Made by a program: the position numbers and the translations under genes. From Candidatus Bathyarchaeota archaeon (GTDB taxonomy: Archaea; Thermoproteota; Bathyarchaeia; Bathyarchaeales; Bathycorpusculaceae): a DNA stretch of 64,000 nt. This document shows, piece by piece, positions 21,730-23,055 of this stretch. The notes beneath the pieces were generated by a model, which saw nothing but the letters and a program-made list of their open reading frames with translations, searched no databases and was not told the origin of the DNA. Where the stretch lies: NCBI GenBank assembly GCA_963815095.1, contig CAWFFH010000007.1:32001-96000 (forward strand), in the 5' to 3' direction. How positions within the stretch are numbered: position 1 is the stretch's first letter; every line of letters starts with the position of its first letter.

Positions 21730-22362
21730 ATGGTTTTTTTCTTAAACGATTATCTTGTTGCCAATGGAATAAGCCTAAGAAAACGAGTTTCCGACCTTTT
21801 TGATGAATTAGAAAAGAACAATGAATTAGCCCAAGTTTTCATACAAAACCCAACGCTTGTTTTGCAATCCAAAGTTTTGCCTGAATTCCAAGTGCTCGAA
21901 GAAAACTCAATTAACGCCGCAAATCAACTTTTGTTCTCTGTTTTAAGTAACGACAAATTCATGAAGTGGACCCAAGACTACGGGACAAAACTGATTGATC
22001 GATATAACAAAACAGGAAAGGTTCCTGACAAAAAGAAAATACTGCGAGATTTCGCAAAAGGAATTATCGAATATGGGGACCCAGAATTGCTCAGTGACAT
22101 TCTTGAAATGCCCCAAGAACTAATTGAATCGTCCTCAGGGCTCGTTGATCGCTGGTGGTTTTACTATCATATTATTGCGTTCATTGAATTCTTCTACATT
22201 TTCGTATACGACTATATCATTGTTGGTCCAGACAGAATCAGCCTGCTGGATGAAAACCAAAAAATTGTAACGATTTCACCTAAAGAACTCAAATCTTTGG
22301 CTGAACAAATGATTAAATATTCAAAGAAAATGAAAGAAGATAATAATTTGGATAATCATTAA
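21730..22362 (+). CDS. Putative RiPP precursor-like protein 1 (paralog of next gene)
   Basis: Aligns with 22381..23055 except for the aromatic segment DRWWFYYHIIAFIEFFYIFVYDYIIV; ATG 21730 chosen by alignment and the shared cgaatttt leader. Confidence 0.6.
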   Translation: MVFFLNDYLVANGISLRKRVSDLFDELEKNNELAQVFIQNPTLVLQSKVLPEFQVLEENSINAANQLLFSVLSNDKFMKWTQDYGTKLIDRYNKTGKVPDKKKILRDFAKGIIEYGDPELLSDILEMPQELIESSSGLVDRWWFYYHIIAFIEFFYIFVYDYIIVGPDRISLLDENQKIVTISPKELKSLAEQMIKYSKKMKEDNNLDNH

Positions 22363-22380
22363 CTAAATGGACGAATTTTC

Positions 22381-23055
22381 ATGGGCTTTTATTTGAATGA
22401 TTTCCTCACAACTAATGGCATAAACCTCAGAAAACGCGTATCTGATCTATTCGACGAGTTAGAGAAAAACCCTGAATTAGCTACGGCCTTCATTCGCAAC
22501 CCGATAGTTGTTTTGCAAACAAAAATTTTCCCAGAATTCCCAAAGTACGATGTAAATCGAACAAATGAAGCAAACCAATTTCTCTTTTCAGTGTTATCTA
22601 ACGATAAATTCATGCAGTGGCTACAAAAATACCAAAAACAAACAATCATTCATTACAACAATTCCGGAAAACTACCAACTAAACAAAAAGTACTGCAAGA
22701 ATTCGCAAAAGCCTTAATCGAAAATGGCGACCCAAAAATACTGGGCGACCTACTGGACACTTCTCCAAAAACCATGGAACAATTAAACTCTTCTAAAATG
22801 ATAGAAATGGATTTTGTAGTCAGCAACAAGAATTTCGCCATATGGGAATATCTCTTTTTGATTCGAATCTCGCTTTTTGTCTACAACTACGATTACTTTA
22901 CTTACCAAGCAGCTGGGATAGGCAAAATAGACATAATTGATGAACAACACAAAATTGTCACAGTTTCTTCGAAAGAACTTCGGTCCCTATCAGATCAAAT
23001 AGTAAAATATGCCAAGCAAAAGCGAGAACAAACAGAAGAGAAAAAACTTGAATAA
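22381..23055 (+). CDS. Putative RiPP precursor-like protein 2
   Basis: Paralog of the previous gene; variable segment NKNFAIWEYLFLIRISLFVYNYDYFTYQ. Confidence 0.6.
   Translation: MGFYLNDFLTTNGINLRKRVSDLFDELEKNPELATAFIRNPIVVLQTKIFPEFPKYDVNRTNEANQFLFSVLSNDKFMQWLQKYQKQTIIHYNNSGKLPTKQKVLQEFAKALIENGDPKILGDLLDTSPKTMEQLNSSKMIEMDFVVSNKNFAIWEYLFLIRISLFVYNYDYFTYQAAGIGKIDIIDEQHKIVTVSSKELRSLSDQIVKYAKQKREQTEEKKLE

Follow-up and report, generated by a model that had tools for sequence, protein, structure and literature searches.

The cassette and its partner family

A three-gene cassette was analysed in a 64,000-nucleotide stretch (contig CAWFFH010000007.1, positions 32,001 to 96,000, assembly GCA_963815095.1) of Candidatus Bathyarchaeota archaeon; this whole stretch is called the window. 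The cassette consists of two neighbouring paralogous open reading frames (ORFs), each coding for a putative substrate protein, and an ORF for a radical S-adenosylmethionine (SAM) enzyme of the EpeE/YydG-like type. Paralog A is located at positions 21730-22362 on the plus strand and encodes 210 amino acids from its ATG. Paralog B (22381-23055, plus strand, 224 amino acids) begins 18 nucleotides downstream of A and overlaps the enzyme gene (23009-24145, plus strand, 378 amino acids) by 47 nucleotides. This arrangement is the three-gene version of a widespread, unnamed two-gene module of an enzyme and its partner protein. A TTG at 21718 represents an alternative start of paralog A and would add four residues; the ATG was chosen because the homologs begin at this position. 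From the ATG, paralog A was 100% identical to the stored protein P0040, and it was found in its own genome by the family hidden Markov model (HMM) at E 1.8e-60.

The two paralogs were 49% identical overall (BLASTP, E 3e-70), and all gaps fell into a central block. By region, 77 of 131 positions were identical in the N-terminal part (59%), 9 of 56 in the centre (16%) and 17 of 39 in the C-terminal part (44%; alignment A1, see below). The proteins are thus much more alike at both ends than in the centre, as had been proposed in an earlier note on this DNA. The variable middle of A comprises residues ~127-171 (22108-22242, plus strand) and contains an aromatic and hydrophobic core, RWWFYY...YDYIIVG (residues 141-166; 22150-22227, plus strand). 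It is followed by the conserved C-terminal part (LLDENQKIVTISPKELKSLAEQ...; 22243-22362, plus strand), the 'follower' helix, which lies in conserved columns. In B the variable middle extends over residues 126-187 (22756-22941, plus strand) with the aromatic core FAIWEYLFLIRISLFVYNYDYFTY at residues 152-175 (22834-22905, plus strand), and the conserved C-terminal helix over residues 188-224 (22942-23055, plus strand), in which E199, L200 and L203 are invariant and the predicted local distance difference test score (pLDDT) is ~93. The element (F)VY..DY, which had been described as common to both cores, fits only B in this spacing (FVYNYDY); FVY followed by DY is also present in A, with closer spacing (FVYDY).

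Near homologs were collected with a word-indexed search, in which 48 proteins among 194 candidates matched at E ≤ 0.001. All 48 were unnamed or annotated as 'hypothetical' and carried no Pfam domain. After exclusion of 12 near-duplicates and 4 fragments, 32 of them were aligned with A and B (alignment A1, 34 sequences). The first ~130 and the last ~45 columns were highly conserved, with 30 invariant columns. In the flanks, column entropy was 0.3-1.2 bits. It rose to 1.2-2.2 bits in columns 131-200, where 14-90% of the sequences had gaps. The motifs LRKRVSDLFDELEKN, LFSVLSNDKFM, GDP and KIVT.S.KEL.SL were all present, in invariant or near-invariant columns. The per-column conservation therefore agreed with the postulated leader-core-follower architecture, namely a conserved N-terminal domain, a variable middle and a conserved C-terminal helix.

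The middle block of the 34 close homologs could be sorted into at least seven discrete subtypes, such as the A type HWWFYYHII.FIEFFYIF.YDYI.VG, the B type NFAIWEY...RIS.FVYNYDY and types of the form RHVWYYVE.YAWAY.YFFY. Between subtypes, the middles were 5-20% identical and unalignable, at 56-73% identity of the N-terminal domain (A1). Within a subtype, the middle was conserved at least as well as the rest: 96% versus 86% for the N-terminal domain between B and P0001, 77% versus 63% between B and P0008, and 95% versus 89% for the flank between A and P0034. The A-type middle was common to P0020, P0023, P0027, P0030, P0031, P0034, P0035 and P0039-P0044 at 72-100% identity. In the corresponding locus of a related Bathyarchaeota metagenome-assembled genome (MAG; locus L007), the enzyme was 92% and paralog B 88% identical, and the first slot was occupied by a protein of another subtype with 58% identity to A. 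On these grounds, the block called hypervariable in the earlier note is better read as a set of discrete, conserved and exchangeable core types.

A comparison of the paralogs with Pfam, NCBIfam and PADLOC gave nothing meaningful. Matches to SNCAIP (20 bits) and heme oxygenase (E 0.08) were judged to be due to chance. No Pfam family was shared among the 61 + 21 family members tested, and the bacterial members are named 'hypothetical protein' in public records. DUF5969, the nearest Protein Atlas cluster (0.80), was followed as a lead only and was dropped, as no family member matched PF19394. A characterised family outside the RiPPs (peptides made by the ribosome and modified after translation), which would have spoken against a precursor role, was not matched in these searches.

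The wider family was obtained with phmmer against 1.84 billion representatives, resulting in 180 proteins at E ≤ 0.001, 21 of them at ≤ 1e-10 and 3 at ≤ 1e-30. Most matches span residues ~15-128, and the proteins are 190-280 amino acids long. Alignment A2 was built from 58 of the 150 listed matches together with A, B and one Methylocapsa member. It had the same three-part layout, with an unalignable middle between the N-terminal domain and a C-terminal helix of the pattern ..LR.I..QL...A..L...G.L. In the N-terminal domain, P41, N65 and N74 were invariant, and L9, F77, W80, A111 and D117 nearly so. The pattern of conserved ends and a variable middle, which recurs in the 48 near homologs and in the 180 cluster representatives, is not a product of chance.

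The likeness of the middle to a membrane helix was judged by the best 19-residue Kyte-Doolittle mean, and values of at least 2.4 were taken as transmembrane-like. Paralog A reached 1.95 and paralog B 1.17. Among 127 distant homologs of at least 180 amino acids, 80 reached the threshold; this was so for only 22 of the 75 family ORFs next to enzyme genes (70 loci in species-level genomes). The remaining middles of these 75 ORFs were of intermediate hydrophobicity (12), polar of the form NNAAG..TPV..PSTSD..SSQNFNG (12), of 'xTDH' types with ..SSPIFASGF.VPTDH.. that are often followed by long GTD-type repeats (16-17), cysteine-rich of the form QCVSNETTGK..CTCTPVAK (5-6), or different (7). The transmembrane-like cores were composed of 36% V, 21.5% A, 14% I, 10% L and 1.6% G. 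For comparison, multi-pass ORFs of these loci had hydrophobic segments with 24% L, 19% A, 15-17% V, 8-9% I and 7% G, a control that is small (16-18 ORFs) and was drawn with a lower hydropathy threshold (1.8-2.0 versus 2.4). The motif VAVE.ET.IYAVAVAAV recurred in transmembrane-like middles across phyla.

A twin-arginine-like N-terminal signal was recognised by a regular expression in ~13-15 of 197 stored members, and Pfam TAT_signal matched 1 of 61. It resides on an N-terminal extension of 50-70 amino acids (..SRR..hydrophobic..) in P0057, P0063, P0070, P0075, P0084, P0085 and others, and in the loci L029, L035 and L045. Such signals occurred with hydrophobic or transmembrane-like and with polar core types alike, which implies that in those species the whole, presumably modified, protein would be exported.

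Hydrophobic middles can be accounted for in another way, and this account is considered unlikely: the paralogs might be membrane-anchored adaptor or partner subunits with a freely drifting anchor, either a single transmembrane or a monotopic one, as their middle. The conserved ends would then keep the enzyme at the membrane, and its substrate would be something else, for instance a lipid or a small peptide. The 80 of 127 distant homologs above the threshold, the value of 1.95 for paralog A and a low-confidence AlphaFold helix in B at residues 152-177 agree with it. Single-pass anchors drift fast, and for the transmembrane-like members a plain anchor is possible because of the hydrophobic middle and this low-confidence helix. 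It is countered by the 22 of 75 ORFs next to enzyme genes, by the low value of B, and by polar, cysteine-rich and repetitive middles at the same position. Within subtypes the middle is conserved as well as the flanks or better, and a motif such as VAVE.ET.IYAVAVAAV, kept across phyla, is not needed by a plain anchor. The transmembrane-like cores are also rich in Val and Ile and poor in Leu and Gly when compared with the membrane ORFs of the same loci. Twin-arginine-like signals on both core types make a fixed single-pass topology hard to reconcile. A conserved transmembrane helix of constant length had been named as the result that would overturn the substrate reading. The middle is hydrophobic in most members and often sufficiently so for a membrane helix, but it varies in length, lacks conservation over the family and is polar in many; a membrane helix that is constant throughout the family does not fit.

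Linkage to the enzyme gene and distribution

Gene linkage was determined in the best 80 of 111 confirmed stretches from a pattern scan with the enzyme alignment, using one genome per species. In 70 of these 80 loci, the partner HMM identified a family gene directly upstream of the enzyme gene and on the same strand; in most cases it adjoined or overlapped the start of the enzyme gene. The radical-SAM gene next to the paralogs is hence a conserved partner, as the earlier note had assumed. The loci were distributed over Actinomycetota, Pseudomonadota, Bacteroidota, Cyanobacteria, Acidobacteriota, Planctomycetota, Bacillota, Gemmatimonadota and other phyla in addition to Bathyarchaeota. Two partner copies were found in five loci. 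Tandem copies with different middles in front of a single enzyme gene were seen in the locus under study and in L007, L019, L029, L035 and L051, an arrangement that speaks against a drifting membrane anchor.

Among the ten loci missed by the partner HMM, as judged by eye, L047, L049 and L081 had upstream tandem proteins of the same layout with (V/I/M-T)n cores, and L048 had a transmembrane-like one. Further misses were cut by contig ends (L071, L083) or contained partial enzyme genes (L056, L076), and L043 and L080 differ. In L047, L049 and L081, which are from alphaproteobacterial MAGs, the middles of the partners are long alternations of Thr with Val, Ile or Met, for example ..TVTITMTMTMTITITVTMTMTVTVTSGY.., and the proteins end in a distinct conserved C-terminus, ..AQ.VADQ.GWFS.

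A search that started from the partner gave the enzyme gene directly downstream in 5 of 6 loci, the exception being L006 of Paraburkholderia sp. In L006 (5932-8359), a family member with PTGHATGHATG-type repeats is followed by a gene for a 551-residue protein, and no radical-SAM gene follows. The 551-residue protein is related to the product of the gene after the enzyme in Methylocapsa (L005:7846-9270), and the ORFs upstream of the L006 member appeared transposase-like by eye. A chance neighbourhood, in which the paralogs would be common structural or regulatory proteins without relation to the enzyme, is highly improbable and is brought close to refutation by linkage. Neither protein has a known function, and the Paraburkholderia member lacks the enzyme; on the other side stand the abutting same-strand genes in 70 of 80 loci, in many phyla and two domains of life, and the complex model described in the next section.

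Clustering of 2071 neighbouring ORFs of the 80 loci revealed no third conserved gene, and synteny was restricted to single lineages (Duganella). Neither a protease nor an exporter gene was conserved with the cassette in these loci. Classical RiPP clusters have a linked protease or exporter, and the lack of both here agrees with a membrane-adaptor role of the paralogs. At L018:6161-6844 and L031:4931-6217, downstream of the cassette in Methylocapsa and Duganella, a methyltransferase of the FkbM type is encoded (Pfam Methyltransf_21, E 1.6e-11 and 8e-14), which could serve for tailoring in these lineages.

The partner family was represented by 180 clusters, and for the enzyme the number of clusters exceeded 477. 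Identity between archaeal and bacterial members was 42-53% for the enzyme and ~19-30% for the partner. A profile search of the own genome revealed no further copies of the family or the cassette. In an even sample of 201 genomes of the class, the family was found in the own genome only, and it was found in none of 11 genomes of the same genus. The cassette is therefore regarded as a patchy accessory element. A cassette of the archaeal clade was also found on a bacterial MAG contig labelled Syntrophorhabdales (L002:6001-7722), with an enzyme 70% and a partner 48% identical to those of the window. Its GC content was 44.4%, with 54.0% and 56.7% in the flanks, which suggests inter-domain transfer or a chimeric contig.

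The enzyme and its predicted complex with paralog B

The enzyme matched Pfam Radical_SAM at E 2e-8. Its best NCBIfam match was TIGR04078 (YydG) at E 8e-16, with residues 37-347 aligned to positions 2-304 of the 309 of the model. The score of 58.4 bits is far below the cut-off of 300 bits; the enzyme can therefore not be counted as a YydG equivalog, and it may catalyse a different reaction. In the PDB, only three YydG/EpeE sequences matched at E ≤ 0.01 (E 2e-9). The AlphaFold model, based on 28 sequences, had a pLDDT of 89. In a Foldseek search with this model the top nine hits were all EpeE (E 6e-17, template-modelling scores TMq 0.68 and TMt 0.79, root-mean-square deviation 3.8 Å over ~335 columns), followed by BlsE at E 4e-10 and a template-modelling score of 0.46. 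EpeE/YydG is thus by far the nearest solved relative of the enzyme, which is not of the proteusin type. Matches to prokaryotic viperin models, from which a defence system might be read, were limited to the generic radical-SAM core (residues 45-124, ~32 bits), and this reading was rejected.

The enzyme has a CX3CX2C motif (C46/C50/C53; 23144-23167, plus strand). The three cysteines of this motif were invariant in the 28 enzyme sequences, as were C243, C261, C262, C328 and C331; C261 and C262 form an invariant CC pair at 23789-23794 (plus strand). In the model, the EpeE fold is present including the C-terminal domain (T-SPASM) that would carry the auxiliary cluster. In a phmmer alignment with modest confidence in this block, the segment ...DGNISTCC of the enzyme ends at chain residue 248 of 8ai6. 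As 8ai6 is the D210A mutant with the exchanged residue at chain position 235, the tag offset is 25, and C262 consequently corresponds to EpeE Cys223. Cys223 is the hydrogen-atom donor that completes epimerisation after abstraction of the C-alpha hydrogen, and EpeE acts on Val and Ile (PMC5682303, PMC13012085, both in excerpt). For Asp210 of EpeE no counterpart could be assigned, since the alignment has low confidence in that block. The own genome contains a second and distant match to the enzyme profile outside the window, at C1:174261-174987 on the minus strand. It is split into two neighbouring pieces that are read in different frames (E 3e-16 and 3e-14), so that a gene with a frameshift or a pair of ORFs may be present.

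Paralog B was modelled with AlphaFold as eight helices over residues 13-137 (pLDDT >90), a middle with pLDDT <55 and a confident C-terminal helix at residues 197-223 (~93). A Foldseek search with this model gave no match at E ≤ 0.001. With VIA-align, a Z of 6.2 at best was obtained for helical hairpins of a generic kind, which says little in the case of a helical protein. The complex of the enzyme and paralog B was predicted with a score of 0.87, and the best of three controls scored 0.00. Among solved complexes, 116 of 157 attain the score mark, and among mismatched pairs 2 of 215 do so; this calibration holds only roughly because own unpaired alignments were used. The runs agreed in at least 47% of the contacts, and the pLDDT of the partner was at least 59.

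On the partner side, the predicted interface comprised residues 2-78 and 197-209, and on the enzyme side residues 28-33, 238-244, 271, 288-298 and 344-369. The contacts with the lowest error were between residues 16-27 of B, in the leader-like motif, and enzyme residues 30-31, 288-297 and 356-364. The C-terminal helix of the enzyme (349-373) extends past the part aligned with YydG and forms the predicted docking site. The interface contained 12 of the 29 invariant partner residues, with 6.1 expected (P 0.006). The model speaks for an attachment of the partner to the enzyme by its N-terminal helices and its C-terminal helix. The modelling proposed in the earlier note thus placed both conserved ends on the enzyme, but gave no confident contact for residues 79-196, which include the middle block; the model therefore says nothing on whether the block reaches the active site. 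Binding by the conserved ends only is also what would be expected of an adaptor.

The same data bear on a further possibility, that the paralogs are substrates in which a residue of the flanks is modified or which undergo another reaction (a cross-link, a thioether or a methylation-independent C-C bond), with the middle serving as a variable linker or functional loop. This is rather improbable. It agrees with the position of all invariant residues of the wide family in the N-terminal domain, several of them at the predicted interface, and with the score of the enzyme far under the YydG equivalog cut-off; cysteine-rich subtypes would suit thioether chemistry. Conserved interface residues are, however, equally expected if the domain serves for recognition as a leader. 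The hydrogen-donor cysteine of EpeE is conserved, most middles contain no cysteine, and EpeE is the closest solved relative.

Leader likeness, known systems and proposed maturation

The motif ELxxxFIxNP had been taken in the earlier note as reminiscent of NHLP/proteusin leaders. It lies in residues 20-54 of both paralogs (A, 21787-21891; B, 22438-22542; both plus strand), which form two helices and read LFDELEKN..LAQVFIQNP..VLQ in A. A leader profile was made from the first 85 residues of 41 sequences (A4). Its top PDB match was SonA ('LigA domain') at E 0.03, with family positions 19-54 aligned to SonA 10-45; this match covers 36 residues and rests on seven sequence variants of one protein. 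The NHLP leader 9cjx was matched at E 2. An NHLP comparison set was assembled from 13 matches to TIGR03793 in 81 cyanobacterial genomes, 8 of which had a match at E ≤ 1e-8. With hhalign, family positions 20-54 were aligned to NHLP 6-39 with a probability of 61%, P 7.9e-5 and a score of 26.4 over 34 columns. The column-reversed NHLP profile scored 13.4, and 100 column shuffles gave a mean of 8.6 (standard deviation 1.8, maximum 14.3), none of them reaching 26.4. NCBIfam had no match at E ≤ 1 for A or B to the NHLP model TIGR03793 or to a Nif11 model, and Pfam LigA was not matched by the paralogs or the family members tested. The likeness to NHLP and LigA leaders thus appears to be real but short and is borderline at the profile level, and the suspected resemblance stands as a profile likeness without a match to an NHLP or Nif11 model.

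Among known systems, the epipeptide pair EpeX/YydF and EpeE/YydG is nearest, the latter being the closest solved enzyme relative both by sequence and by whole-length fold. The CX3CX2C motif, the cysteines of the C-terminal auxiliary cluster and the hydrogen donor Cys223 all have counterparts in the enzyme of the cassette. The putative target block is hydrophobic and rich in Val and Ile, like the residues that are epimerised by EpeE (excerpted sources, as above). In contrast, the core of EpeX is C-terminal and the whole peptide is short (the fragment used was EpeX18-49; PMC13012085, excerpt), whereas the proteins described here have 210-224 residues and an internal variable block. The enzyme differs from YydG by its low score and by the additional C-terminal helix 349-373. 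The yydFGHIJ locus includes genes for a protease and an ABC exporter according to the excerpt of PMC7026026, and no genes similar to yydH, yydI or yydJ are linked here. Epipeptides are stated to be restricted to Bacillota in a 2026 paper (PMC13012085, excerpt), whereas the present cassette occurs in Bathyarchaeota and in at least eight bacterial phyla.

Proteusins such as the polytheonamides have a long, folded helical leader that is comparable to the predicted N-terminal domain of the paralogs, residues 20-54 being aligned in register with NHLP 6-39. In both systems a hydrophobic core, or putative core, with many beta-branched residues goes together with a radical-SAM enzyme, and in proteusins it is such enzymes that epimerise the core (PMC5682303, excerpt). 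The paralogs differ from them by the missing match to TIGR03793, by a core that is internal and not C-terminal, by a conserved helix of ~40 amino acids after the variable block and by the EpeE-like enzyme. The solved NHLP leader is a three-helix bundle with a two-strand sheet, as far as excerpted from PMC12537861, whereas AlphaFold predicts an all-helical domain of ~125 amino acids here. The split borosin SonA, the top match of the N-terminal profile, likewise has a helical recognition domain on a RiPP precursor. The likeness to SonA is short and borderline, the partner described here is three times longer, and split borosins are modified by an alpha-N-methyltransferase and not by a radical-SAM enzyme.

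From these comparisons, A and B are interpreted as leader-core-follower substrates of the adjacent EpeE-like enzyme, with docking at two points that would present the middle for C-alpha radical chemistry, most likely epimerisation. This interpretation is preferred with a confidence somewhat better than even. An enzyme-substrate pair fits best because a conserved leader and follower enclose a variable middle that is conserved within each type and is enriched in the classes of residues attacked by EpeE-type enzymes. It also fits because several substrates may belong to one enzyme, the enzyme evolves much more slowly than its partner, and tailoring-type genes occur occasionally.

The substrate would be composed of three parts: a folded helical N-terminal domain with its first two helices (residues 20-54) resembling leaders of the NHLP/LigA type, a subtype-specific middle of ~40-60 residues rich in aromatic and beta-branched residues, and a conserved C-terminal amphipathic helix. 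According to the complex model, the helical lobe at the C-terminus of the enzyme would be the docking site for the N-terminal helices as well as for the C-terminal helix. The middle block would in this way be clamped at its two ends and offered as a loop to the active site. By analogy with EpeE, hydrophobic residues of the block would lose their C-alpha hydrogen to the enzyme, and the conserved Cys262 would return a hydrogen from the other face, resulting in epimerisation from L to D. Radical outcomes other than epimerisation are possible. The product could be kept as a protein, cleaved, or exported by the Tat system in some species.

Several of the results weigh against this interpretation. 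The likeness to NHLP/LigA leaders covers only ~35 of the ~125 residues of the domain, and the complex model rests on a roughly valid calibration and leaves the middle without confident contacts. The target residue could be situated in the flanks, because all invariant partner residues lie there. The enzyme scores far under the YydG cut-off, and Asp210 of EpeE has no placed counterpart. No protease or exporter is linked, and the hydrophobic middles of most distant homologs, the low-confidence helix of B and the small size of the composition control leave room for the anchor discussed above.

The remaining genes around the cassette gave the following picture. Upstream, an ORF for a transporter of the major facilitator superfamily (20075-21565, 496 amino acids) is transcribed divergently. 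A terminator-like hairpin with a T-rich tail was found at 24183-24200 (plus strand), 38 nucleotides past the enzyme gene, and possibly marks the end of the operon. The consensus scan gave five such hairpins in the region with 2.8 expected; since it is designed for the bacterial type, the hairpin is weak evidence in an archaeon. Among sequencing runs that share words with this DNA, no RNA run was listed; the seven matching runs were of DNA or of uncertain kind, with word shares of at most 0.26. Downstream of the cassette, two convergent ORFs of 330 and 480 amino acids are located on the minus strand (24725-25717 and 25816-27258). They had no Pfam match above the cut-off, with only weak matches to EAD10 (E 0.18) and MCM_C (E 0.024), and no match in PADLOC. 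Two pairs that resemble toxin-antitoxin systems by eye are present elsewhere in the window, one at 15997-16673 (minus strand) with a PIN-like ORF of 134 and an AbrB/SpoVT-like ORF of 88 amino acids, and one at 18601-19080 (plus strand) with an ORF of 70 amino acids followed by a RelE/ParE-like ORF of 87 amino acids.

No description of the enzyme-partner pair was found in full-text searches of the literature that is accessible without subscription. Neither Pfam, NCBIfam nor PADLOC has a model for the partner, and maturation of ribosomal precursors by radical-SAM enzymes is already known. What appears unusual here, as judged from sequence and models, is an internal core in a protein-sized putative substrate with two docking elements, in Archaea. 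A more far-reaching proposal is speculative and doubtful at present: the cassette may represent a new class of ribosomal products matured by radical-SAM enzymes, with the core inside a protein of ~210 amino acids and an NHLP-like leader and a follower helix that clamp an EpeE-like epimerase. D-residues in the blocks rich in Val, Ile and aromatic residues might then yield membrane-active (beta-helix-like, pore-forming) or protease-resistant segments. The chemistry of Bacillota peptides would be extended to whole proteins in many phyla and in Archaea, and core subtypes would be exchanged like alleles of RiPP precursors.

Most RiPP finders look for short ORFs, and if the modification is real, the partner family would provide a new precursor architecture for genome mining. 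EpeE/YydG-type epimerases have so far been described only for short peptides of Bacillota (PMC13012085, excerpt). With a real modification, D-amino-acid chemistry or other radical reactions would be known from a wider range of proteins, and the cassette would be a rare candidate for a RiPP-like system in Archaea. If the paralogs are membrane adaptors instead, they would still constitute a conserved new partner family of a radical-SAM enzyme.

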